A DNA stretch of 64,000 nucleotides from Alphaproteobacteria bacterium (GTDB taxonomy: Bacteria > Pseudomonadota > Alphaproteobacteria > CASFRQ01 > SAAU01): contig SAAU01000001.1 in assembly GCA_009929265.1 (NCBI GenBank), positions 58,245-122,244 of the forward strand, read 5' to 3'. Positions 11,080 to 56,731 of this stretch are shown here, piece by piece. Both the position numbers and the translations under genes were made by a program. Under the pieces are notes generated by a model. It had not been told where the DNA came from. It was given only the letters and a program-made list of their open reading frames with translations, and ran no database searches. How positions within the stretch are numbered: the first letter of the stretch is position 1; every line of letters starts with the position of its first letter.

Positions 11080-12933
11080 TTAAGAACGGTTGAAAAGCTT
11101 TTCAATATCTTTAAGTTTAAGCTCAATATACGTTGGCCGGCCGTGGATACATTCACCTGCAAAATTGTTTTGTTCCATTTCACGGAGTAAGGCGTTCATA
11201 TCATTAAGGGAAAGTTCACGTCCTGCACGGATAGATCCATGACAAGACATACTGGCCAAAATATCCTTGATACGTTCTTTTAAGGCAAAAGCGGTTTTTG
11301 TCTCTTCCAAAATTTCGGCAATGTCTTTAGTTAGCGCTTTGATATCAGATTGCTTCAAAAGGGCGGGGATTTCACGAACCATAACGGCATTTTGCCCAAA
11401 CCGGTCATAGGAAAAGCCTAGTTTTTGCATTTCTTCTTTATGGTGACAAAGGGCCTCTACCTCACTTTCTGTAAGGTCGACAACCTCTGGAATAAGTAAA
11501 AGTTGAGTTTTGATTTGCTCGGTATAGGCTTTTTGAAGCTTTTCATAAGTAAGGCGTTCATGGCTGGCGTGTTGATCCACAAGGATAAAACCGTCTTGTG
11601 TTTGCGAAATGATATATGTTTTTTGGATTTGAGCCTTTGCAAAGCCCAAAGGGGGAAAGGCGTTCTCTTTTGAAGAAGGATAGTTCTCCTCGGGTATAAG
11701 AGGAAAAGGCGTTTTTACCGAAAATCCATTTTCAAGATCTAAAGGGGTTTGGCGAAACTCTGTATTTACAGAATCTTCAAATGTGTTTGTTCCTTGAGGG
11801 GGATTTTGCCCTTGAAAAGAGCTTGGATTAAAGGAATTTCTTGAAAAGGAAGAAGGGCCTCGACTGCTTGAATAGGATGGGTAAGAATTGTGTTCAATAT
11901 TCTTTGAAAGACTTTCAAGAGCGCCAATTCCAAGCGTGGTAGATGTTCGATGCCCTGCCGTTGCCAGCGCCTGTTTTAACGCACCGATAAGAAGGCCTCA
12001 GACGGAAGCTTCCTTTTGAAAGCGCACTTCTGTCTTTGCAGGGTGGACATTCATATCAATCTCTTGATGCGGAATATCTAAATAAAGAACGGCAATTGGG
12101 AAACGCCCTTGGAAAAGAAGGCCTTGATAGGCGGCCTTTAGAATGCCGTAGAGCATCTTATCCTTAATTGCGCGACCGTTGACAATGAAATACTGATCTT
12201 TTGACGTGGCACGCGTATAGGTCGGAATGGAGATAAAGCCTTTAAGGCTCATCCCGTCTCGTGTGGCTTTAATGTCTAAGGTGTTTTCCATGAAAGAGGC
12301 GTCAATAATATCCCGTGCTCGTTCTTTCAACGACGGGGCTTTAGGAAAGAAAAACAGCTTTTTCTTTTCGTTAAAAAGGGTAAAGCTGACCTCAGGATAG
12401 GCAAGAGCGATTTTATAGATAACCTCTTTTGAAGCCAAAAGCTCAGATATGTCGGATTTTAGGAACTTTAAGCGGGCAGGGAGGTTGTAAAACAAATCCC
12501 GCATTTGAATAAGGGTTCCTTTGGCGTGTGCCGTGGGGGTGATTTCGCTTTTCTTTCCCGCATTAACTTCCAAAGAAAGGCCTGTTTCCTCGGCCTCTGC
12601 CTTTGTTGTGATTTTAAGGTGGGAAACAGCGCCGATAGAGGCCAAAGCTTCTCCGCGGAACCCTAAAAAGTTAATATTAAACAAATCATCTGTTGGAAGT
12701 TTAGAGGTAGCGTGACGCTCCACAGAAAGAAAGAGCTCTTCTTTATTCATCCCTTTTCCATCGTCTGAAATAGATAACAGGCGTTTTCCCCCTTCAATAA
12801 GGGTGATTTCGATATTCTTAGCTTCCGCATCAATGGCGTTTTCAATCAATTCTTTAAGGGCGGAAGAAGGCCGTTCAATGACCTCTCCAGCTGAGATTTG
12901 ATTGATAAGATGTGGGGGAAGCAAGCGTATCAT
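11080..12933 (-). pseudogene. mutL: DNA mismatch repair protein MutL, interrupted by one in-frame TGA at 11998-12000
   Basis: The N-terminal ORF (12933-11998) is the GHKL ATPase domain, with motifs such as QISAGEVIERP and HPAKTEVRF. The C-terminal ORF (11649-11080) is the dimerisation domain, with VDQHASHERL. I translated the minus strand from 11649 up to 12000 by hand in the same frame. It stays open through a Ser/Pro/Asn-rich linker until the TGA, which is also the stop codon of the N-terminal ORF. That makes 618 codons in one frame with a single nonsense codon. Confidence 0.75.
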
Positions 12934-31326: not shown

Positions 31327-32022
31327 ATGTTTTTTATTAAACAACAAGTGAGGAAGTATGGGCATATTATTTCTTTAGGATATAATTGCGAAATTTCCTT
31401 TCAATTTTTTCTAAAATACCATTTTGTTGAAAGTAGTTTGTTTGCTTGGGTAAATTGTTTAAATGTTGATAATTTAATTTACGCTTTATCACATTTAGAC
31501 AAGGTTTGTTCCGGAGAAATTAAAAATATAAAACCAATGTGGAAATGTGAAAATACAGGAATCTGTTTCCATGGAAAAACATCTATGAAAATTATGATAA
31601 ACAATCTTTCTGCTCAAATTTTAAAAGAAGATAAAGAAGAATTGTTGAGCAGAGTTTCCTATTTAAAGAATAAATTTATTCAAACATCTTCCGATGGGAA
31701 AAAGAATCTTTACATATTTAAATATCCCTCAAAAGAAGAATCTGACATTACAGAGAAAATAAATCTTTTGTATGAAAAATTAGATAATCTTGTTGAAAAT
31801 GAATTTGATTTACTAATCATTTTGGAAAATGATTTTTGTTCTAAAATACAGGAAAATGTATTTAATCCTCATATTTTTATTCGGCGAGTTGATTTTTTTA
31901 CAAAAGAAGAAGATGTGACTTCTAAAGAAAATGATTTTAAACACTATAAAAAAATATTTAAAGAATTTCGTCCTGATTTTAAACAAAAAAAGAAGAAAAA
32001 ATTTAAGTTTGAGGAAATTTAG
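31327..32022 (+). CDS. hypothetical Lys-rich protein with conserved G-x-N/A-C-E...FxW motif (DUF1796-like?)
   Basis: 231 aa. The N-terminus reads SLGYNCEISFQF...SLFAWVN. It is paralogous to the next ORF. Confidence 0.3.
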   Translation: MFFIKQQVRKYGHIISLGYNCEISFQFFLKYHFVESSLFAWVNCLNVDNLIYALSHLDKVCSGEIKNIKPMWKCENTGICFHGKTSMKIMINNLSAQILKEDKEELLSRVSYLKNKFIQTSSDGKKNLYIFKYPSKEESDITEKINLLYEKLDNLVENEFDLLIILENDFCSKIQENVFNPHIFIRRVDFFTKEEDVTSKENDFKHYKKIFKEFRPDFKQKKKKKFKFEEI

Positions 32023-32023
32023 A

Positions 32024-32770
32024 GTGAAGAAAAAATATGATTTGATTTTTGGGATAGGGGAAGCGTGTTCTTGCACTCAAGCTTTAAGAGGGGCTGGGCT
32101 TCAGATTAAATCTTTTCCTTTCGATTGGCTTTATGGATCTGATTTTTTAGGTCGGATTGAAATTTTAAGCTCTTGTTTTAAGGATTTTTTTAAAAAAGAA
32201 GATTTGGTTGACACAAAAACAACAAATTTGGATAAGAAAAATTTATGTAAAATTTATAAAAATAAAAGAAATAAAATTGTTTTTAATCACGATTTTCTTG
32301 AAAAAATGCCTTTTGATGAAGCGTATCCTAGCATTTTTGAAAAATATCAAAGGCGGATAGGGCGGCTATTTTCTTTAATTAAACAGGCAAAAAGTTTTTT
32401 AGTTGTTTACATTGAAACCCCAAACGCTGAAGAAAAATTAACAGATAAAAAAGATTTAAAAAAAGCTTTTAATTTTTTGCAAAAGGCTTTCCCCCATAAA
32501 AAGATAGATTTAATTTACTTTTCTAATACGACAAAGGCCTTTGATAAACAGAGTTTTGAAGAGGTTTCCAAGCATATTCTTTTAGCACGTTTCAATTATA
32601 GTAGCATAAAGGAAAATGACCCTGATTATGCGATAAATGGAAAGCTTATTAAAAAGATATTAAGACAGAAATTTCGTCTAAAAATGTCTTTCAAAGAAAG
32701 GATTTATCAGATCTTAAGAAAAAGGGGAAAGAAACTCTTAAGACGACTCGAAAAAATTAAAAAAAGTTAG
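32024..32770 (+). CDS. hypothetical Lys-rich protein, paralogue of 31327-32022
   Basis: A GTG start at 32024 has GAGGAAA 8 nt upstream. The N-terminus reads GIGEACSCTQAL...FPFDWLYGSDF, parallel to the upstream paralogue. Confidence 0.3.
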   Translation: MKKKYDLIFGIGEACSCTQALRGAGLQIKSFPFDWLYGSDFLGRIEILSSCFKDFFKKEDLVDTKTTNLDKKNLCKIYKNKRNKIVFNHDFLEKMPFDEAYPSIFEKYQRRIGRLFSLIKQAKSFLVVYIETPNAEEKLTDKKDLKKAFNFLQKAFPHKKIDLIYFSNTTKAFDKQSFEEVSKHILLARFNYSSIKENDPDYAINGKLIKKILRQKFRLKMSFKERIYQILRKRGKKLLRRLEKIKKS

Positions 32771-34868: not shown

Positions 34869-36203
34869 ATGTTTAAAGAAAGGAAGAACGTGTCAATTAA
34901 ATTAGAAATTCCTGTTCTGTTTTCTCCTCTTTTAAAAGAAAAAAAACGCTATAAGCTTTATTATGGAGGGCGGGCAGGGGGAAAAAGTTATGCTTTTGCC
35001 GAAAGCATCCTCCTTAAAGGGCGAATGGAAAAGCTTTTTATTGTCTGTGTACGTGAAATTCAAGAGAGTATTAAAGAATCTGTTTATAAGCTGCTTTCCG
35101 ATAGAATTGAAAAATTAGGCCTCTCAGATTACAAAATTTTTGAAAGAAAAATCGAAAATAAGCTAACAGGAACGAAAATTATCTTTAAGGGATTAAGAGA
35201 TCAGGATGCCTCAAAGATAAAGTCCTTAGAAGGGGCGGATATTTGCTGGATTGAAGAAGGGCAATCTATTACAAAGAAAAGCTGGAATATTTTAGATCCA
35301 ACCATTCGAAAGGAAGGCTCCGAAATCTGGATTTCTATGAATAGAGAAAATGAAAACGATGCTCTTTGGATGATTTTAGGCAAACATCCCGATAAAAGGA
35401 CGTTGGTTCAAAAAGTTAATTTTATGGATAATCCCTTCTGTCCCGAAGAAATTAAATTTCAGGCCAAAAAATGCCTCAAAGATAGACCAGAAGAATATCC
35501 ACATATTTGGCTGGGAGAGCCTAAATCTCAAGCCGATAAGACGTTAATTTCATCTGGATTGATCTTAAAAGCTTTTCAAACGAAAGGAATTCTTTCCAAA
35601 AGTCCACTTGTGATTGGAGTCGATATTGCCAGATTTGGATCAGATAAAAGTGCTTTTGTTTACAGAAAAGGCCGGTCGTGTTTTAAGTATGAGCTTTTGT
35701 CCTCTCAAGATACAGTGGATATTGCCAATCGATTAACAGCTTTAATCTATGAGGTGCATCCCCATAAGATTTTCTTAGATTTGGGAAATTCCGGGGCAGG
35801 GGTCTACGATATCCTAAATGATAGAGGGTTTTCCGAGATTGTTGTTGGGATAAATTTTGGTGCTAAAGCCATTCAAAAGGATAGATATGTCAATAAACGT
35901 GCCGAAATGTGGGACGGTATTCGATTATGGCTTTCGGGAAAATTGCCCGTTGAGCTTTTAGAACATGAAGGCGTGCTTTCTGATTTGATTTCGGTTCAAA
36001 AAAAGTATGATAGCTATGGGCGATTACAGCTTGAAAGCAAGGATGAACTTAAGAAGAGGTTAGGGCATTCTCCTGATATTGGGGATGCTTTAGCTTTGAC
36101 CTTTGCAGAGCCTGTTTTCGAAAAAACACCGCCAAAGCTTTACAAATCTGGTGTTTCTTTTGAAGATCTTTTTCAAGAAGAAAAGCTCGATTTATCCTGG
36201 TGA
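34869..36203 (+). CDS. phage terminase large subunit (PBSX-like family)
   Basis: 444 aa. The Walker A-like ATPase motif reads YYGGRAGGKSYAFAE. A C-terminal nuclease-like half contains acidic residues (VIGVDIARFGSDKSAF). Confidence 0.75.
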   Translation: MFKERKNVSIKLEIPVLFSPLLKEKKRYKLYYGGRAGGKSYAFAESILLKGRMEKLFIVCVREIQESIKESVYKLLSDRIEKLGLSDYKIFERKIENKLTGTKIIFKGLRDQDASKIKSLEGADICWIEEGQSITKKSWNILDPTIRKEGSEIWISMNRENENDALWMILGKHPDKRTLVQKVNFMDNPFCPEEIKFQAKKCLKDRPEEYPHIWLGEPKSQADKTLISSGLILKAFQTKGILSKSPLVIGVDIARFGSDKSAFVYRKGRSCFKYELLSSQDTVDIANRLTALIYEVHPHKIFLDLGNSGAGVYDILNDRGFSEIVVGINFGAKAIQKDRYVNKRAEMWDGIRLWLSGKLPVELLEHEGVLSDLISVQKKYDSYGRLQLESKDELKKRLGHSPDIGDALALTFAEPVFEKTPPKLYKSGVSFEDLFQEEKLDLSW

Positions 36204-36346
36204 GCGTCTAAAAAGAGTAATAAAAATTCTTATTTTAAATACTAGTTGTATTTGTTTTTTGAATAGATTACACTAAAAACGCGTAAGCTTGTTGTTGTCA
36301 AGACGTCTTAATTTTTTAAGGCGTCTTTTTTTATTGGGAGTTTTAA

Positions 36347-36598
36347 ATGTTAAATGCCGTTTCGGATCGGATTTTCGTTAGGTTAAAAGAGGCGCCTAAA
36401 AAAAGTTCTCTTATTCTAACTGATTCTCTAAAAGGGATTTCAAATCAAGGAATTGTAGAAAGTGTAGGGCCTCTTGTTTATTCTGTTAAAAAAGGACAAG
36501 AGGTTCTTTTTCATTGCTTTGATGAGCTGCCAACCCCTGAAAAAGGAGTGGTTGTTATTCGAGAATCAAGCATTTTAGGAATTTATGAAAATGAGTAA
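36347..36598 (+). CDS. GroES-like 10-kDa co-chaperonin-fold protein (phage-encoded?)
   Basis: 83 aa. The N-terminus reads DRIFVRLKEAPKKSSLIL and the C-terminus reads VVIRESSILGIYE. These run parallel to GroES DRVIVKR...GGIVL and MSESDILAIVE. The 3' end overlaps the next ORF. Confidence 0.35.
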   Translation: MLNAVSDRIFVRLKEAPKKSSLILTDSLKGISNQGIVESVGPLVYSVKKGQEVLFHCFDELPTPEKGVVVIRESSILGIYENE

Positions 36599-38444
36599 AT
36601 TATCAAAAAATACATCACTTTCTTTTTGGCAAAAACGAGTTTTGGATGCCGAAAAGAAATATTATGATTACCACAATCTTGTCGATAAAACGCGAAAATT
36701 TTATAAGGATAGTGAATCAACGTTAGGAAAATCAGGACATTACAATATTTTTTGGTCCTCTGTTGAAACATTAAAGCCCTTTCTTTACTTTAAGTGTCCC
36801 GAAATTCATATCAAACGCTTAAATAAAGAGGCTTCTAAAGGCGAAAAATATGCTTGTAAAATTCTTGAAAAAGCTTTGAAATGGAGTGTTTCTCAAGCCG
36901 ATTTCGATAGTGTTTTGAAATATGCAAGAAATGATTTTCTTATCTCTGGCATGGGGCTTCTTTGGGAAAGATATCAAGGTGAATTTACAAAAATTGACGG
37001 CGAAGATATTAAAGTTTCCGAAAATGTCTTGTCGCAATATGTGGATCCGTCTTGCTTTATTGCCGATTGTGATAATGTTGGAATTTGGGAGGATGTCACT
37101 TGGGTGGCTCGACGCGTTTATATGTCTTTAAGGGAGATTGAAAAAAGTTTTGGAAAAGAAAGTTTGGAAAGCTTACAAATCAATCTAAAAGAAGATGAAA
37201 AAGACTTTAAATCCTATGTCGTTTACGAAGTTTGGGATAAAGTTACCAAAAAAGTCTATTGGTTTGAAAAGAATGGCACAAAATTCTTCAAGGTTTTAGA
37301 GGATCCTTTGCATTTGAAGGACTTTTTCCCGTGTCCAAAGCCCTTGTTTGCGACCCTAACGAATGATAGCATTATTCCTATTCCTGATTATATTTTGATT
37401 AAAGAACTCTTAGATGAGTTAAATGGGGTTAATTACCGAATGAGGATGATTACGCAGGCGTTTAAAGTCTCTGGAGCCTACGATGGATCTTTCCCCGATT
37501 TACAAAATATTTTGGAAAAAGAAAATGTATTGGTGGCCTTAAAAGACTTTATAAAACTTAAGGAAAACGGCGGAATTAAAGGGGTTATCGACTTTATTCC
37601 TTTGGAACAATATGTCGCAGCCCTATCAGAGCTTGCTGAACGCAGGAAGGATATTATGATGCAAATTTATAATATCACAGGAATTTCTGATATTATGAGA
37701 GGGGCTTCTAACCCACAAGAAACTGCCACTGCCGTTGTTCGAAAAACAAACTTTGGGAACCTAAGAAACCAAGACCGGCAAAATGATATGCAACGCTTTA
37801 TTGCGGATCTTTACCGTCTAAAGGCCGAGATGATTGCAGAGCTTTTTTCAAAGGATTTATTGCTTTCATTTCTTTCTAAAGAAGAACGACAAGATGAGGA
37901 GGCCTCAAAAGAAGCTCTTCGTATTTTACGGGAAGAAAAAATCCGCCAAATGAGCTTTCTAATTGGAACAGATGGCTTGTTTAACCAGGAAGAAGAGCTT
38001 AAAAAGACATCAGATGTGCTTTCTTCGTTAAATGGAATCGTTCAAAATGCGCTTCAAAATGTATCTGTGCAGCCTCTCTTGTTGCTTTTTTATAAGGAAA
38101 TGGTGGATGTGGTTGCGCAATACTTGCCCAAAGCAAGATCCCTTGAGAGTGTGATTGAATCGACGTTTGATAAGATTTCAAAAGAGCTTTCCTCAAAAGA
38201 AAATCCAGGGCCTAATCTTGGATTTTTACTTGAGCAAGAAAAACTTAAAAACACCTTTATGATTGAAAAAGAAAAGCTTGAAATTAAAAGAAAAGAGCTT
38301 CTCTTAAAGGAAAATGAGTTTAAATCAAAGCGAGATCTCACTCAAAAAGAAATGGCCTTGCAAGCACACTTTAAAACAGAAGAGTTAAAAGAAGATAAGA
38401 AGGTTGATAGCAATATTTCAACAGGGTTTGTGAAAGATTTTTAA
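36585..38444 (+). CDS. putative phage portal protein with C-terminal coiled-coil
   Basis: 619 aa. It sits immediately after the terminase and has a long C-terminal helical, Lys/Glu-rich region. I recognised no diagnostic motif, so the call rests on position and size. Confidence 0.3.
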   Translation: MKMSKLSKNTSLSFWQKRVLDAEKKYYDYHNLVDKTRKFYKDSESTLGKSGHYNIFWSSVETLKPFLYFKCPEIHIKRLNKEASKGEKYACKILEKALKWSVSQADFDSVLKYARNDFLISGMGLLWERYQGEFTKIDGEDIKVSENVLSQYVDPSCFIADCDNVGIWEDVTWVARRVYMSLREIEKSFGKESLESLQINLKEDEKDFKSYVVYEVWDKVTKKVYWFEKNGTKFFKVLEDPLHLKDFFPCPKPLFATLTNDSIIPIPDYILIKELLDELNGVNYRMRMITQAFKVSGAYDGSFPDLQNILEKENVLVALKDFIKLKENGGIKGVIDFIPLEQYVAALSELAERRKDIMMQIYNITGISDIMRGASNPQETATAVVRKTNFGNLRNQDRQNDMQRFIADLYRLKAEMIAELFSKDLLLSFLSKEERQDEEASKEALRILREEKIRQMSFLIGTDGLFNQEEELKKTSDVLSSLNGIVQNALQNVSVQPLLLLFYKEMVDVVAQYLPKARSLESVIESTFDKISKELSSKENPGPNLGFLLEQEKLKNTFMIEKEKLEIKRKELLLKENEFKSKRDLTQKEMALQAHFKTEELKEDKKVDSNISTGFVKDF

Positions 38445-38470
38445 CCCTTAATACAAGAAAAAGGTGAGGT

Positions 38471-38689
38471 ATGGTAAAAAGAAAAACGCCTCCAAAAGAT
38501 ATGAAAAAAATCTGGTTAGAGGTTTTTGATAAAATGGGTGGAATTGAAGGATTGCTTTCTTGGGCAAATGAAAATCAAAATGAATTTTATAAAATTTGCA
38601 CAAAGCTTTTTTCAATTGAAATAAAAGATAAAGATGAAAAGCCAAATCAGGTTCTTGTTAAATTTTTGGAAGATAAGAAGTTAAATTAA
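38471..38689 (+). CDS. hypothetical phage-module protein (72 aa)
   Basis: The ORF is co-directional and tightly packed within the phage-derived block. Confidence 0.2.
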   Translation: MVKRKTPPKDMKKIWLEVFDKMGGIEGLLSWANENQNEFYKICTKLFSIEIKDKDEKPNQVLVKFLEDKKLN

Positions 38690-38757
38690 GTTATTTTATT
38701 AACAAGCTATAAAAGAAGGTTAAATTTATTTTAGCCTTCTTTTTTTATGGAGGAATT

Positions 38758-38985
38758 ATGGCCTTTATTAACAGCCTATTTCAGACAGATTTTGAGTTGC
38801 CCAATGGTGAAAAAGTCTCTTCTTTAAAAGAAGCAGAAGAAAAAATGAACCAGCTTGGGATAACTTTATCAAGCAATTATTCAGAGGATTATTACAAGAA
38901 AAAACGTCTGAGTAATACGAAAAAAGAGAAGGAAGATCTCTTCAATCTCTTTATTTTAAACTACAAAAGGAGTATTTGGTTATGA
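38758..38985 (+). CDS. hypothetical phage-module protein (75 aa)
   Basis: The ORF is co-directional within the phage block. Confidence 0.2.
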   Translation: MAFINSLFQTDFELPNGEKVSSLKEAEEKMNQLGITLSSNYSEDYYKKKRLSNTKKEKEDLFNLFILNYKRSIWL

Positions 38986-39084
38986 CAACTAAAACAAGAG
39001 AAGAATTAGAAAAACTTTTTTCTTCTTTGCCGAAAACTATAAAAGAAGAAAAACATAAAGAGGGGGAGAAATCCTCAAGTCATT

Positions 39085-39519
39085 TTGGAGAAATTAGCTT
39101 CCCTTTATCAGGTTTCATTTCCATCAAAGCCCCCTCTTCAAAAAGGGGAAAATAAGGATAAACCCCTTCTTCAGAAGGCTTTATCTTTACTAAAATCCTT
39201 TGATGACGCGGTTGATGAAGCGGGGACAAAAAAGCACCCCTTCTTTAATGACGTTTCTTTAGAAATGGCTTCCCTTTTGAAAAATAAGCTCGTCTCCTCT
39301 TTGGAAGAGGCTTATGAAAAAGCCGTTTGGCTTAACCCAAAAATTAGAAATTCTTTAATCGAAGAAAAAACGCTTCAAACAATAAAGAAAAAAGTCGAAG
39401 AATCCGAAAAGGCCAAGGAAGCCTCCTTTTCGGTTAAGGGAAAAATGACTGGACAATCAGATCTTTCAAAGCTTTCAACGAGAGATCTTTTGGAATTTCA
39501 ATTCCGGAATTTAGACTAA
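39085..39519 (+). CDS. hypothetical helical phage-module protein (possible scaffold)
   Basis: 144 aa, alpha-helical and Lys/Glu-rich. An overlapping ORF at 38983-39156 in another frame may mean a frameshifted single gene. Confidence 0.2.
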   Translation: MEKLASLYQVSFPSKPPLQKGENKDKPLLQKALSLLKSFDDAVDEAGTKKHPFFNDVSLEMASLLKNKLVSSLEEAYEKAVWLNPKIRNSLIEEKTLQTIKKKVEESEKAKEASFSVKGKMTGQSDLSKLSTRDLLEFQFRNLD

Positions 39520-39546
39520 ATTTTAACTTAAAAAAAGGAAAACAAA

Positions 39547-39795
39547 ATGAGTAATTCAAATTATAATGATATTTTTACGACAACATTAGAAAGCAGAACA
39601 GGAAAATTGGCTGATAATGTTTCCGATAGCAACGCTCTTCTTTCTAGATTGAGAGAAAAGAAGAATATGGAGAATATCCAGAAACTACCCTTCCAGAAGA
39701 TGGCACTTGGTCCAATTATGTTTCAACAGGTTCTTCTGGAAGTGGGACTGTTTTGGCGTTGCGCTTTAAAAAAAATAATCGAGAAACACGTATGA
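39547..39795 (+). CDS. hypothetical phage-module protein (82 aa)
   Basis: The ORF is co-directional within the phage block. Confidence 0.2.
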   Translation: MSNSNYNDIFTTTLESRTGKLADNVSDSNALLSRLREKKNMENIQKLPFQKMALGPIMFQQVLLEVGLFWRCALKKIIEKHV

Positions 39796-39840
39796 AAAAC
39801 ATTGCGTTAAACTACTTTATTAAAGTAAAGGAGGAAGAAA

Positions 39841-40191
39841 ATGTCGCATAAAATTACCCCTGATGGGATTTCTATTACGCAAGGAGATTCTCTATATCTT
39901 CCTATTACTTTTAATGGGATGGATATTACGAATGCCACCTTAAATATGCAGGTGAGCTCTCAGGATTTGAAGACCCTTTTCATTGATAAGAAAGTCTCAA
40001 CACATATCGATGCTGCAAACGGGAAAACGGCTCTTAACTTAATGCCGTCAGATATAAATATTCCCGTTGGCGACTATGTGACAGATATGGAACTTTGCCT
40101 TTTAGATGGTCAAATCTTGACCTTTTACCCTGAAAGAACAGAAAAACAAGCCTTTTTTAGAGTCCTTGCCCAAGTGACAAAGGAGGAATAA
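39841..40191 (+). CDS. hypothetical phage structural protein (beta-rich, 116 aa)
   Basis: AGGAGG-like RBS (AAGGAGGAAGAAA) sits before the ATG. Predicted beta-strand-rich composition. Confidence 0.25.
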   Translation: MSHKITPDGISITQGDSLYLPITFNGMDITNATLNMQVSSQDLKTLFIDKKVSTHIDAANGKTALNLMPSDINIPVGDYVTDMELCLLDGQILTFYPERTEKQAFFRVLAQVTKEE

Positions 40192-41112
40192 ATGTCTGAA
40201 ATGAATTTATTTTTTGATGAAACAACGGGATTAAGCTTGGACATCAAAGAAGAAGCCTTAGACGTCTCAATAAATGAGGCAGAATTAACTGTATATCCAG
40301 AAGGCCTTAGCTTTATTCATAATGGAGAAGATGAAATAAAGGCCTTTGTTGAAAAGGTTTCAAAACCCGAGCTCAATACTTTTGTTTTAGAAGAAAAAAA
40401 GCCTGAATTAACAGCGTTTACTCAAGAAAAATTAACTGCGTTAGGCACTCAATATCAAACCTATAACACTCAATTAAATCAGCAAATAGATGAGAATAAG
40501 TCCGAAATGGAAGCCCTTTATAGCGCAACAAATACGCTAAAAGAAGAGGCCGCTTTACAAAAAGAGAAAGCCTTTCTTTGGGCGACAAAAATGGATGGAG
40601 AGGTTGAGGAAGGCCAAGGGTATAGCTCAAAATACTATGCATCGCTTTCCGATGAAAAAGAAGACAAGTCAAACAAAATTGCCCTTTTTCATGAAACGCC
40701 AGATGATACGCATTATCCTTCCGAAAAGCTGGTTTATGACGCTTTAGCCAATAAAATAAATTTGGAGGCGTCAAATCTATCTGATTTAGGTAAGAAAAAT
40801 TTGTCAGAATGGTCTCTTCCTGGGGACAGTTTTATAAATGTGACGCCAATTGCCTCCGGAGGAACTTATACAGCACCAAAAAATGGCTATTTTTCTTTTT
40901 TAGCAACAGCTCTTGATTCAACGGCCAGTATGATTTGCTTTAATGATGAGAGGCGGTTTTATCAATCGGTTTTTTATTGCAATGGATCGTCCCTTTTCCT
41001 CGGGCTAACAATTCCAATTCGGCAAGGTCAAACCATAACCTTTAGTTTTAAGAGTATCGAAAATCTGAATGTTTCATTCATCTATACAAAGGGAGAAGAG
41101 CTATGTTTATAG
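40192..41112 (+). CDS. hypothetical phage structural protein (306 aa; capsid or receptor-binding candidate)
   Basis: An acidic N-terminal half is followed by a beta-rich C-terminal region. It is translationally coupled to the upstream ORF (stop-start TAAATG). Confidence 0.25.
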   Translation: MSEMNLFFDETTGLSLDIKEEALDVSINEAELTVYPEGLSFIHNGEDEIKAFVEKVSKPELNTFVLEEKKPELTAFTQEKLTALGTQYQTYNTQLNQQIDENKSEMEALYSATNTLKEEAALQKEKAFLWATKMDGEVEEGQGYSSKYYASLSDEKEDKSNKIALFHETPDDTHYPSEKLVYDALANKINLEASNLSDLGKKNLSEWSLPGDSFINVTPIASGGTYTAPKNGYFSFLATALDSTASMICFNDERRFYQSVFYCNGSSLFLGLTIPIRQGQTITFSFKSIENLNVSFIYTKGEELCL

Positions 41113-41465
41113 GCTATCAAAATGGGAAAATTGTAGCTCAAGCTTTAACACAAGAAATTCTTGAATCCAAGCTTTGCGTTTCATTTGATGAAATTGAAGA
41201 GACAAGTCAAAATGTGATTGAAAAAGAAGGAAAACTTTATCTTGAAAATGAAATACCTTTAACGACAAAAGAAGAAATTGAAGAAAAAAGAAAATATCTT
41301 TATCAAATAAAAGTCGACTGTTTAACAGCCGAAATTTCAAGATTAAGAGACGAAATTCAAACTTTAGAAATTCAAGAGAAAATAGCAGATTTAATTTCAA
41401 AAAGGAATGAAATTGTTGATGAAATAAAGCTTCAAAATCCTTACCCAGATGAAGGAGAAAGCTAA
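41103..41465 (+). CDS. hypothetical coiled-coil protein (120 aa)
   Basis: Heptad-like E/K/I-rich sequence. It overlaps its neighbours by a few nt. Confidence 0.2.
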   Translation: MFIGYQNGKIVAQALTQEILESKLCVSFDEIEETSQNVIEKEGKLYLENEIPLTTKEEIEEKRKYLYQIKVDCLTAEISRLRDEIQTLEIQEKIADLISKRNEIVDEIKLQNPYPDEGES

Positions 41466-41728
41466 TGGCCACAAAATCAGAAAATGCGCTTTTAGCTCGA
41501 ATTGATGAGCGAACTTTAGAAATTCAAAAAAAGCTAGATAAACATATCCTTTTGATGGATTCGCTTTCTATAAAGGTGAATGAGCACGAACTTATTTTAT
41601 TTGGAAAAAAAGGAAATGATGGGCTGATTTCAAAAGTTGAATATCATGACAAAATTTTACTTAAAGCCATTGCTATTGGAGGGTTTTTACTTGTTTCTTT
41701 TGAATTTTTGAAAGGGGTTTTATTATGA
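41465..41728 (+). CDS. holin-like small membrane protein (C-terminal TM)
   Basis: 87 aa with a single C-terminal TM segment (AIAIGGFLLVSFEFL). It overlaps the endolysin start by 4 nt, which is the classic position for a holin or antiholin. Confidence 0.3.
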   Translation: MATKSENALLARIDERTLEIQKKLDKHILLMDSLSIKVNEHELILFGKKGNDGLISKVEYHDKILLKAIAIGGFLLVSFEFLKGVLL

Positions 41729-42078
41729 ATTTTTTTACAAAAAAAGAGCTTTCTTGCCCTTGTTGTGATTCCTATTTTTTCAAAGAAGAAACTTTAGAAA
41801 TGCTAGATGAAGCCCGAAAAAGGGCAGGGATTGCCTTTATTATCTCAAGCGCTTGTCGGTGCGAAAAACATAATAAAGAGGTGGGCGGAAGCCCGTTATC
41901 GGCGCATAAAACAGGGGAGGCTGTGGATCTTATTTTTCAAAATTCAAACGAGGCTTTTCTCATTTTGGAAAGCCTTATTTTTGTTGGATTTAGGCGGATA
42001 GGAATCAATTTCAAAAAGGGATTTATTCACGTGGATTCTTCAAAAACACTTCCCCAAGAGGTGTTATTTCACTATTAA
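41725..42078 (+). CDS. endolysin, peptidase M15A-type (L-alanyl-D-glutamate / D-Ala-D-Ala peptidase fold)
   Basis: Zn-ligand pattern: SACRCEKHNKEVGGSPLSAHKTGEAVDL (H-x6-D) and a later FIHVDS His. The protein is 117 aa. Confidence 0.7.
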   Translation: MNFFTKKELSCPCCDSYFFKEETLEMLDEARKRAGIAFIISSACRCEKHNKEVGGSPLSAHKTGEAVDLIFQNSNEAFLILESLIFVGFRRIGINFKKGFIHVDSSKTLPQEVLFHY

Positions 42079-50911: not shown

Positions 50912-51372
50912 TAGAAGATTTTGACTTGTGGGATAAGATTAAGAAATCAATACAACCTATTGATAAAAAAAGTTATATTAAAGAAGATGACTTCCAAAAC
51001 CCCCTTCAATCTTTTGCAAAAAAAATAGCTATCCATCGACATTTTCCAGAGGTTTTATCTTTTAAGCCCGAACGAAAAGAGCTTTCTTTTTCACTAGATC
51101 TTCATGGTAAAACATTGGATGAAGCCTTCTCTTTACTTTCCCATTTTATTGTGGAACATCGAAGACGGGGAACAGAGTTTGTCACAATTATCACTGGAAA
51201 AGGACTAAAGAATGAAGGACTTTTGAAAAAAAATGTTCCTTTATGGCTTGAAAATGAGAAAATAAAAAAGCATATTGTCTCTACGCGAAAAATATTGGAT
51301 TCAAGAGCACAATATGGCTCTTTTTTGGTTTATTTGAAACCGAAAGGTAAGAAAAAAGAATGTATGTATTAG
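50908..51372 (+). CDS. Smr-domain protein
   Basis: The Smr core reads [37 protein letters not shown]. The start overlaps the mltA stop (ATGA). Confidence 0.7.
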
Positions 51373-52706
51373 GGATAGAATCAAGCTGTGACGAAACTGC
51401 AGCAGCCATTGTTTCGGAAAAAAAGGACCTCCTTTCGCATGTCGTTTGGTCCCAGCAGGAACATTTGGCTTTTGGCGGCGTTGTTCCAGAGATTGCCGCA
51501 CGGGCTCATCTAGATAGAATCGATGAGATTGTTCAAGAAACTTTGGATAAGGCGCATCTTACTTTTGATGACTTATCCGCCATTTCTGTCGCCGCAGGCC
51601 CCGGTTTAATTGGGGGCGTCATTGTGGGGGTTATGACAGCAAAAAGCATTTGTGCTGCCAAAAATATCCCTTTTGTGGCCGTTAATCACTTAGAAGGACA
51701 TGCTTTAACGGCAAGGCTAACGAGTGACGTTGAATTTCCATACCTTCTCTTATTGGTTTCAGGAGGGCATTGTCAGCTTCTTGTCGTAGAGGACGTTGGA
51801 AAATACAAAATGCTCGGCACGACGATTGACGATTCGTCAGGAGAAGCGTTTGACAAAGTCTCAAAAATGCTTGGTTTGGGCTATCCTGGAGGACCTAAAA
51901 TCGAAAAAGAGGCCCAAAAAGGCAATCCCAAGCGATTCCGTTTTCCTTCTCCTATGAAGGGCAGGGAAGGGTTTGATTTTTCTTTTTCAGGCCTAAAAAC
52001 AGCCGTTCGTCACCAAATTGAGCTTTTAGGAGACGAAATGACAGAACAAGATATTGCCGATATTTCGGCCTCTTTTCAAAAAGCGGTTTTGGGAAGTTTA
52101 CTTGACAGAGTAAAAAAAGCCATAACGCTTTATAAAGAAAAATATAATGGAAAACACTTGGTTGTTGCAGGTGGGGTGGCCTCAAATCTTGCTTTAAGGG
52201 AAAGTTTAACCTTACTTGCAAAAGAAAACAATTTACAATTTAATGTAGCTCCTGTAAAATTATGCACGGATAACGGGGCTATGATTGCGTGGGCTGGTTT
52301 GGAACGTTTCCGTAAAGGCTATACCAATTCGCTTGACTTCAAAGCACGCCCGAGATGGCCTTTAGAATCACTGAAAAAAGGAGAATACCTTATGAAAATT
52401 ATTAAAGACTCTGAATTTAAAAATACTGTTTTGGAAAATTCAAAACCTGTTGTTGTTGACTTTTTCGCAGAATGGTGCGGACCTTGTCGTCAAATGCTAC
52501 CTATTTTGGAAGAAATTTCAAAGGAAATGGGCGATAAAATTGATATTGTGAAGATGAATATTGATGAAGCTCCAGAAACACCAAATACTTATCAAGTTCA
52601 AAATATTCCAACAATGATTCTTATTAAAGATGGAAAAGAAATTGATAGAAAAGTCGGATCTATGCCAAAACATGTTTTTGAAGAATGGGTTAATTCTCAT
52701 CTTTAG
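51360..52706 (+). CDS. tsaD: tRNA N6-threonylcarbamoyladenosine synthase TsaD fused in frame to thioredoxin
   Basis: Residues 1 to about 340 are Kae1/TsaD ([14 protein letters not shown] and the HLEGH family core, ending RPRWPLESL). No stop follows. The frame continues through AAAAAAGGAGAATACCTT-ATG into a complete thioredoxin with the WCGPC active site. Confidence 0.8.
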
Positions 52707-54777: not shown

Positions 54778-54832
54778 TATCAGTAGGTTATTTAATTAAC
54801 TTAATTTACTTTATTAAGAATTATTTTAAAAG

Positions 54833-54860
54833 AAAGAGGGGTATTTCTCCTCTTTTTTTA
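54833..54860 (+). terminator. rho-independent terminator after the amidohydrolase gene
   Basis: The hairpin is agagg ggtatttct cctct, followed by a T7 run. Confidence 0.5.
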
Positions 54861-55743
54861 TATTTAAAAAAGGGATTTAATTCTTTTTTTCACCCTATTT
54901 AAGTTCTTTTTTAAGAGAAATATCGATAGAGATTTTAATTTCCTTTCGCCTTTTTTGATAGGATTCCCTTTATTTTTTTATCCAAAAGATATTTTTAAAA
55001 ATGTTTAAGGCCTTTTTTTAACCTCCTGACGCCGTTTTAATAATACTAGAAATATGTGATTAACACTTCTAACATCCCTCTAAAACGCAGTAAAATCGGC
55101 TTAAATACGTATCTTTAGAAGAAGGATGTTCTCAACCTACTTGGCTGATACTCGAAAGAATAGAACGTTAAAAGATCTATATGGGAAAGCCATCTAAACG
55201 TAATTCTTAACAAGATAAAGAAATCTCCTTTGAAAGGAGGCTTGGAAAGATTAAAAAGGGCATTCAAACAGATTCAAAATAAGCATTAAGTACAACCCCT
55301 AACCAAAAGAACTCCTAATGTTTTACGCTTTTTCAAAAAAGATAAGGAAAAAGATGCCCTTGGACATATTCAAAGGAATGGGAAATCATACCTTATTTCA
55401 ATCTTATTTCACTTTAAGTCAACTTTCTTCAAAAACAAAAGAATCTTTAGGGCTTTTGCTGCAAGGTCTTCCTTAGTTTTTCATCTATTAGTATACATAA
55501 TATAAATTATACGACAAATAGAGAGAGACGAAAAAGCCCTATTTAATAAAATAGTTGTTTATAATCATATACTTACTAATGAAAAAAAGGAGTTGTGGAT
55601 AACTCTGTGGGATAAATTCCATTTTTTTGAAATATTCACATCTTTATTTAAATAAAAACTTTATAGTCAATTTTGATAGAATCGATCTCATCGATATAAG
55701 GGACTGTTTTTTTATTTTGGACGACGAGAGCGCCCTGCTCTTT

Positions 55744-55830
55744 AGGATGTGATGAGTCGAACATCGAGGCGCCAACCACCCCCGTCGATGTGAACTCTTG
55801 GGGTATCTGCTTGTATCCCCGGCGTATTTA
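55744..55830 (-). pseudogene. relic fragment of 23S rRNA domain V (peptidyl-transferase region), about 87 nt
   Basis: The plus-strand text reads aggatgtgatgagtcgaacatcgaggcgccaaccacccccgtcgatgtgaactcttggggtatc...atccccgg. It is the reverse complement of the universally conserved 23S segment GGGGATAACAGGCTGAT...CCCAAGAGTTCACATCGACGG...GTTTGGCACCTCGATGTCGGCTCATCACATCCT. Flanking sequence is AT-rich and not rRNA-like. Confidence 0.55.
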
Positions 55831-56731
55831 TCTCCATTTCTCTTATTTTTTCTTTTTTTTCCTTAAAAAAGATATTTCTTCATCTTTTTTAAGCCTTTTA
55901 GAAAGGTTATAAAGAAACTCAAAAGGAAATATGAGTTATAAACTGACAGCTTATACACCTCTTTTAGAAAGCTTTTTGATATAAAATTTCAAGCTTAATT
56001 TTCCTTTATTCTTTAAATAATGCCCTCTTTTTTGAAAAAATAACACTTTAACTTCATTAAGTTAATATACTATTATCAAATAGATATAATAGTTTATTAA
56101 AGTAATATATAAAGATAAAAGAAAAATGCCTCTTTGCCTCAAGCGGCTTTTAAATTCGAAAAAATTTTTAAGTCACGTTGCCTTTTTACTTCTTTTCTTT
56201 TTAAGATGACATAAGGGAAAAATAAAGCAAAGCGAAATTTCTCTTAAAGCCTAATCTTTGAAAAACCAAAAAAGGATAGGAATTTAAAAAGCTATAAGAG
56301 AGGCATTAAAATCCGATTTCTTAGATATAAAAAAGCTATAGACATCCTTAATTTTGCTCATTATGGAAGCTCTTTCCGATTTTGTGCTAGAAATCAGAGG
56401 CAACCCTTTTTATAAAAGAAGGGAAACTTCATACCAGAAAGATAGAACAAGAGGAAAAGTGCCTTAGAAGGAAGTGAAATTCATTTCATTTTGGGGATGT
56501 TATTGGAGGGAAGCCATCTGTTTTGATTATTTGAAGGATTTTCTTTCTTTTTTAAGTAAACGCTTTCAAATTTCATAACACAAAGGAAAACCAATCGTTG
56601 ATACGTAAGCTTTTGAAAACAGAAACTTCCTAAATAAGGTAAAAAACTTAGATATAAAGAGTCGTTCCTAAGAAATATCGCCATAAAAAAAGAGGAGGTT
56701 TCCCTCCCCTTTTAAGCTTTAACAAAGAATT

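Follow-up and report, generated by a model that had tools for sequence, protein, structure and literature searches.

The mutL gene of an uncultured alphaproteobacterium, represented by a metagenome-assembled genome (MAG), is open from end to end in one reading frame apart from a TGA at codon 312, and a very recent nonsense inactivation of an otherwise intact gene is probably the right reading. The gene lies in a stretch of 64,000 nucleotides from contig SAAU01000001.1 (assembly GCA_009929265.1), referred to below as the window; all coordinates are those of the window. The rest of the gene shows no decay, and its counterpart in a relative, 97.7% identical, is intact; both point to a very recent event. 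The earlier note on this DNA had listed very recent inactivation beside sequencing error and programmed readthrough, and it is the explanation best supported by the intact relative and by the motifs kept downstream of the stop. We infer that the allele is real in the sampled population and that it abolishes the function of the gene.

Structure of the disrupted gene

Translation of the minus strand gives a frame of 617 codons and a terminal TAA at 11082-11080 (618 codons translated), and the TGA at codon 312 is its sole internal stop (Table 1). In the ORF list of the window the gene appears as two pieces, a 311-aa ORF (11998-12933) and a 189-aa ORF (11080-11649, with a TTG start at 11649), with 116 sense codons (313-428) between them. 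A full-length mutL with one in-frame TGA, composed of these three parts in a single frame, is what the earlier note had described, and the translation bears out both the arrangement and its coordinates. The local sequence at the stop is GTC TGA GGC, with G as the base after TGA, and neither a repeat tract nor a mobile element was found there. From the stop up to codon 429 the ORF list of the window shows no canonical start in this frame, so the TTG at the beginning of the C-terminal domain is the first such start past the TGA.

Table 1. Parts of the mutL frame and of a phage-derived cluster in the window
Feature	Position	Strand	Evidence
mutL frame	11080..12933	-	translation; NF000953 collinear; ungapped against intact 617-aa orthologue, 97.7% nucleotide identity
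Codons 1-311, GHKL ATPase and most of transducer (DNA_mis_repair) domain	12001..12933	-	PF13589, PF02518, PF01119
In-frame TGA (opal), codon 312, in place of conserved Arg	11998..12000	-	relative has CGT; homologue columns
Codons 313-331, conserved final segment of N-terminal domain GLLIGALKQALATAGHRTS, now past the stop	11941..11997	-	conserved columns
Codons 332-428, Ser/Pro/Asn-rich disordered linker	11650..11940	-	no Pfam domain; aligns poorly among homologues
Codons 429-617, MutL C-terminal dimerisation and endonuclease domain	11083..11649	-	PF08676; 3ncv, 3gab
Endonuclease motif DQHASHERLTYE, codons 453-464, intact	11542..11577	-	regular-expression match, window and relative
Beta-clamp-binding motif QLLLIP, codons 477-482, intact	11488..11505	-	regular-expression match
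Terminase large subunit	34869-36203	+	phage-derived cluster
Portal protein	36585-38444	+	PHROG 12082, E = 2e-118
Protein in PHROG of unknown function	39841-40191	+	phage-derived cluster
Endolysin/peptidase-like protein	41725-42078	+	phage-derived cluster

Both sides of the stop are recognizably MutL. The upstream piece matches the Pfam families HATPase_c_3 (PF13589), PF02518 and DNA_mis_repair (PF01119), the last match ending at profile position 106 of 119. It also scores 416.6 bits against TIGR00585 (cutoff 180), and its match to the solved structures of N-terminal fragments of E. coli MutL has E = 4e-69. The downstream piece matches the full MutL_C profile (PF08676, positions 2-142, E = 1.5e-45) and the solved C-terminal domains 3ncv and 3gab. 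Endonuclease motifs were defined after PMC6511837 as DQHAAQERIKYE or DQHA(X)2E(X)4E, SCK, CPHGRP and FXR, and the beta-clamp motif after PMC4678855 as QXX[L/I]XP. Past the stop we found DQHASHERLTYE at 453, SCH at 563, CIHGRP at 595 and FNR at 614, and the C-terminal domain also contains an AQ..TY motif; the endonuclease and clamp motifs are identical in the window and in the intact relative. The ATPase and transducer domains, MutL_C, the endonuclease motifs and the clamp motif are thus all in place. The encoded protein is a MutL of the endonuclease type that works independently of MutH.

The NCBIfam profile of MutL, NF000953, was matched at positions 2-314 before the stop and at 318-611 after it, collinearly and without an indel. 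With MutL domains on either side of the stop and a collinear profile match across it, the frame is a genuine gene and did not arise by chance. Taken singly, the halves score 406.4 and 307.2 bits, less than the NF000953 cutoff of 693 bits, and the TGA at codon 312 breaks the uninterrupted polypeptide that would link both MutL domains. The locus is therefore classified as a disrupted member of the family, a mutL with a nonsense mutation.

The lost residue and the intact relative

GenBank NCB49121.1, from a 221,961-bp contig and named 'MAG: DNA mismatch repair endonuclease MutL [Alphaproteobacteria bacterium]', has the same sequence as the 311-aa product. The 90% cluster of this protein has two further members: NCB49120.1 (302 aa), a 'hypothetical protein' on the same contig that corresponds to the part past the stop, read from an ATC three codons after the TGA; and MDD4519444.1, a 617-aa MutL from a second MAG, GCA_028706035.1. 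In the second MAG (locus L001) the order pgi-mutL-mfd is the same as in the window. Its mutL (P0121 for the protein MDD4519444.1) aligns to that of the window without gaps, at 97.7% nucleotide identity, and its product is intact. Comparison with the orthologue of a close relative had been recommended in the earlier note, and here it returns an uninterrupted gene with CGT, an arginine codon, at codon 312.

Of 109 protein homologues, 107 have arginine in the corresponding column, as do 67 of 80 genome loci (the remainder have His, Tyr or Thr), and the residue is invariant in the 16-sequence alignment (A1). In E. coli MutL the aligned residue is the His of 'RLVHDFI', inside the crystallised N-terminal fragment. 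These columns indicate that the residue lost at codon 312 is arginine, not tryptophan. A search of the reads for a TGA/TGG polymorphism, with TGG (Trp) as the sign of an assembly error, had been put forward in the earlier note; given CGT in the relative and Arg in nearly all homologues, it looks at the wrong base; the position to read is 12000, where the minus strand has T here and C in the wild type.

Two of the three bases differ between TGA and CGT. At the third, the A/T difference borders on a run of synonymous differences (codons 94-300), so that the simplest history is a CGA haplotype in which one C-to-T transition took place. This is most likely the most economical path to TGA, with CGA as the presumed intermediate; CGA makes up 10.7% of the Arg codons in the window ORFs.

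The TGA allele is carried by one assembly only. Its exact pattern around codon 312 had no match in metagenome_contigs or genome_contigs, and a protein-based metagenome scan gave nothing above 51% identity to MutL and no close relative. A search of 5.8 billion proteins returned only one close relative, the next best match being 55% identical, and the nearest genome relatives of the MutL are several uncultured alphaproteobacterial MAGs at 45-49% identity. Among the homologues there is no recurrent truncation at codon 312: the short matches (290-349 aa) end at scattered positions, at contig ends. A literature search on the accessions of the two assemblies found nothing.

The neighbourhood and the quality of the sequence

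Over 20.9 kb the window and the relative can be aligned at 98.2% identity. All 14 neighbouring genes are intact and collinear in both genomes, with no frameshifts or stops, and they are under purifying selection. The 12 small indels in this region are 3-nt in-frame or intergenic ones.

Between window positions 1087 and 22906 the divergence from the relative is patchy: it varies between 0 and 48 mismatches per kb, and the dS of single genes between 0 and 0.28. The 20 synonymous differences in the N-terminal part of mutL are all confined to codons 94-300. Such a pattern suggests recombination between strains.

A mutator spectrum is dominated by transitions and homopolymer indels. The 358 differences in the aligned region comprise 265 transitions and 93 transversions, a ts/tv ratio of 2.85 for one genome pair and unpolarised. 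This ratio and the few indels are not as expected after a long mismatch-repair-deficient period, as far as unpolarised differences from one genome pair with patchy divergence can indicate.

A smaller share of the probability, enough to be taken seriously, goes to the TGA being an artefact or a minority variant, that is, a consensus or base-calling error or a low-frequency variant in a population whose mutL is functionally intact. The sequence is a MAG (NCB49121.1), the change is a single base in a gene otherwise perfectly conserved, signs of decay or of past mutator activity are absent, and the patchy divergence is that of a recombining mixed population, in which a chimeric consensus is possible. 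However, about 21 kb around the stop align to the relative with no frameshift or stop in the 14 genes, so the assembly here is not error-ridden and the local error rate is low; substitution errors in short-read consensus are rare; and even a minority variant would mean that a true nonsense allele exists in the population. Recent nonsense inactivation is thus preferred, although a single opal codon in a MAG needs read-level support before a biological reading.

The earlier note had linked the loss of mutL to the reduced genomes of host-associated bacteria. The 14 intact neighbours under purifying selection lend that idea no support, and MAG relatives at 45-49% identity say nothing on genome reduction. 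A scan of 10 ORFs outside the part of the window that aligns to the relative turned up neither mutS nor another mismatch-repair gene. A 939-aa ORF in the window is GyrA.

TGA as a terminator

The 52 long ORFs in the window end in 32 TAA, 14 TAG and 6 TGA, the mutL piece included. TGA closes five other long ORFs, three of them through ATGA start/stop overlaps, which are typical of operons. Codon 312 of mutL is the only in-frame TGA in 37 confident ORFs, as against 116 TGG codons. By these counts the genome uses the standard code and the TGA at codon 312 is to be read as an ordinary stop.

Two ways of decoding the TGA were rejected. A reassigned UGA code (table 4 or 25) does not agree with the termination of other ORFs by TGA, with one in-frame TGA in 37 ORFs and with Arg in the homologues. 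Selenocysteine insertion or structure-driven readthrough is disfavoured by the 81 nt around and after the stop, which fold no better than shuffled sequences (z = +0.92), by the Rfam scan over the whole window, which found only a tRNA-Glu and no recoding element, and by homologues with Arg rather than Cys or Sec. The option of programmed readthrough in the earlier note is accordingly left with nothing in its favour, TGA being a normal terminator here and no structure lying past the stop.

It is also very improbable that mutL functions despite the stop, either through near-cognate readthrough of the UGA or, in a split version that shares this small probability, through two halves that are made separately and cooperate. 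In the split version, translation of the second half would restart at the ATC three codons past the stop, where GAGG overlaps the TGA and where the 302-aa CDS in GenBank begins, or at the TTG at 11649. The perfect preservation of the downstream domain and its motifs might be taken as a sign of use, but it is expected anyway at such low divergence. The isolated C-terminal domain of B. subtilis MutL nicks DNA with beta-clamp, although an 8-fold excess is needed (PMC4678855). It counts against a working gene that MutL acts through ATP-driven closure of N-terminal domains, which the linker ties to the dimer (PMC12733681). The close relative has an uninterrupted gene, so a split arrangement is not conserved, and the stretch from the stop to codon 429 offers no canonical in-frame start. 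For readthrough, the lack of a stable RNA structure past the stop and of an Rfam element counts against it, the G after the UGA is not known to make a notably leaky context, and a Trp inserted there would stand where Arg is nearly invariant. A stable 'leaky mutator' state in place of a null, in which the opal codon is tolerated and partial repair comes from readthrough or from the 311-aa fragment and a fragment of about 302 aa (which would hold the last N-domain segment, the linker and the endonuclease domain), is scarcely credible.

Sequence evolution on either side of the stop

Nei-Gojobori counts were made by region between the mutL of the window and that of the relative. Before the stop (codons 1-311) dN/dS is 0.028, with 20 synonymous and 2 non-synonymous differences; after it (codons 313-617) dN/dS is 0.73, with 5.3 synonymous and 13.7 non-synonymous differences. 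In 13 of the 14 neighbouring genes dN/dS is 0.02-0.14, and in the 14th it is 0.27. The part past the stop differs significantly from the part before it (Fisher p = 3e-5) and from the neighbours (p = 7e-5). At first sight this would suit an established pseudogene, in which mismatch repair was given up earlier and the part past the stop has been drifting since.

That reading is nevertheless highly doubtful. The excess sits in the linker: for codons 313-428 dN/dS is 1.04 (3.0 synonymous and 10.0 non-synonymous differences), and 10 of the 12 amino-acid changes downstream of the stop fall there. Codons 313-331 show no amino-acid differences from the relative, and all 10 are found in the 97 positions of the linker proper (codons 332-428). 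In four species pairs with intact mutL that served as controls, the linker differs at 37-55% of residues as against 7-12% for the N-terminal domain, a ratio of 4-6. At that ratio the binomial probability that at least 10 of the 12 changes in the N-domain and linker fall in the linker is about 0.12 (hand calculation). The high downstream dN/dS was therefore rejected as proof of decay: it is carried by a disordered linker that is fast in intact mutL too, and gives no positive evidence of drift after inactivation.

The C-terminal domain (codons 429-617) has a dN/dS of 0.42, with 2.3 synonymous and 3.7 non-synonymous differences. Its only 2 amino-acid changes in 189 residues amount to no clear relaxation of constraint (Fisher p = 0.056); they are at positions 496 and 527, in columns that vary among homologues. 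An apparent loss of a semi-conserved linker arginine, R375G, is seen in one alignment and not in another, and is not relied on here. All motifs are intact, the stop is the one lesion in the gene, with no second lesion or indel relative to the other MAG, and the ts/tv ratio also speaks against long-standing inactivation.

One argument in the earlier note does not carry far, namely that a dead gene in an AT-rich genome gains stops quickly. Past the TGA, a substitution has only about a 2.9% chance of producing a new stop codon, and for 19 substitutions, which is the number of all downstream nucleotide differences from the relative taken as having arisen in this lineage, the probability of no new stop is 0.57. 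The lack of further stops thus says little about the age of the lesion.

Proposed consequences of the nonsense allele

Bacterial MutL has two domains, an N-terminal one for ATPase activity and DNA binding and a C-terminal one for dimerisation and endonuclease activity, with a disordered linker between them. Repair requires that the tethered N-terminal domains close, driven by ATP (PMC4678855, PMC12733681). In the proposed course of events, the Arg codon 312, likely CGA, would have become TGA by a single C-to-T change on the coding strand at position 12000. Under the standard code, translation would then stop at codon 312 and yield a fragment of 311 residues. This product would be without the last ATPase/transducer segment, the linker and all of the dimerisation and endonuclease domain. 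The fragment is shorter even than the crystallised N-terminal fragment of E. coli MutL. Since MutL needs its ATPase domain tethered by the linker to the dimeric nuclease domain, the allele is expected to abolish mismatch repair, and a cell carrying it would be a mutator, deficient in mismatch repair. Some full-length protein could still arise through low-level natural readthrough of the UGA. If the allele is real, the uncultured alphaproteobacterial population holds a mismatch-repair-deficient lineage caught very soon after the knock-out.

The public record splits this gene into a 311-aa 'MutL' and a 302-aa 'hypothetical protein' (11083-11988, minus strand, non-canonical ATC start) and does not flag the disruption. 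The annotation should indicate one mutL gene with an internal stop.

Other features of the window

A phage-derived cluster (34869-42078, plus strand; Table 1) lies between housekeeping genes and could be a prophage remnant or a gene-transfer-agent-like element. An ORF of 448 aa (51360-52706, plus strand) contains a complete TsaD domain (residues 24-311) and a complete thioredoxin domain (347-445), and is either a gene fusion or the result of a lost stop codon between two genes. Two ORFs of 231 and 279 aa at 31327-32770 (plus strand) overlap by 92 nt in different frames. Only the second, 279-aa one has a Pfam match (DUF1796, a putative papain-like peptidase), and the pair may represent a frameshifted gene or an over-extended start. 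Finally, about 1.95 kb (54778-56731) stand out from a window that is elsewhere densely coding: neither strand has an ORF above 67 aa, and Rfam gives no match. This region may be degraded or non-coding DNA.

Comparison with known systems

In architecture, the MutL of the window resembles the MutH-less MutL endonucleases of the B. subtilis and N. gonorrhoeae type. The order of GHKL ATPase, transducer, disordered linker and C-terminal domain is the same, and DQHA(X)2E(X)4E, SC[K/H], C-x-HGRP, FxR and QXX[L/I]XP are all present. The window protein and its intact relative show their own variants of some motifs (AQ for GQ, SCH for SCK, CIHGRP for CPHGRP). Unlike those proteins, the window frame is broken at codon 312.

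Reversible or programmed mutator switches, by slippage in a repeat tract or by a mobile element in mutS or mutL, also turn mismatch repair off by a small lesion in an otherwise intact gene. Examples come from S. aureus, with simple-sequence-repeat switches (bioRxiv 10.1101/2025.07.08.663602), and from Vibrio, where a mobile element lies in mutS (PMC5296598). In contrast to such switches, the site in the window has no repeat tract or mobile element, and reversion would take a specific T-to-C back mutation. From the sequence around the stop, nothing indicates a programmed switch at this mutL.

Among natural hypermutators, nonsense and frameshift mutations in mutL are the classic cause. The closest parallel comes from Pseudomonas aeruginosa, where the cystic fibrosis isolate 22a is recorded as 'mutL, C->T at 1474 (TGA at 1474)' and is listed among the hypermutators tested by complementation (PMC2937033, Table 2 for the allele). 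The window organism differs in being uncultured, represented by a MAG only, and in showing no mutator signature in about 21 kb. The likeness lies in the lesion itself: in both cases a point mutation produces a premature TGA in mutL, and it is recent, with the rest of the gene intact. Mutators with mutL knock-outs are already well documented in cultured bacteria, and the window allele would be an ordinary further example of them.
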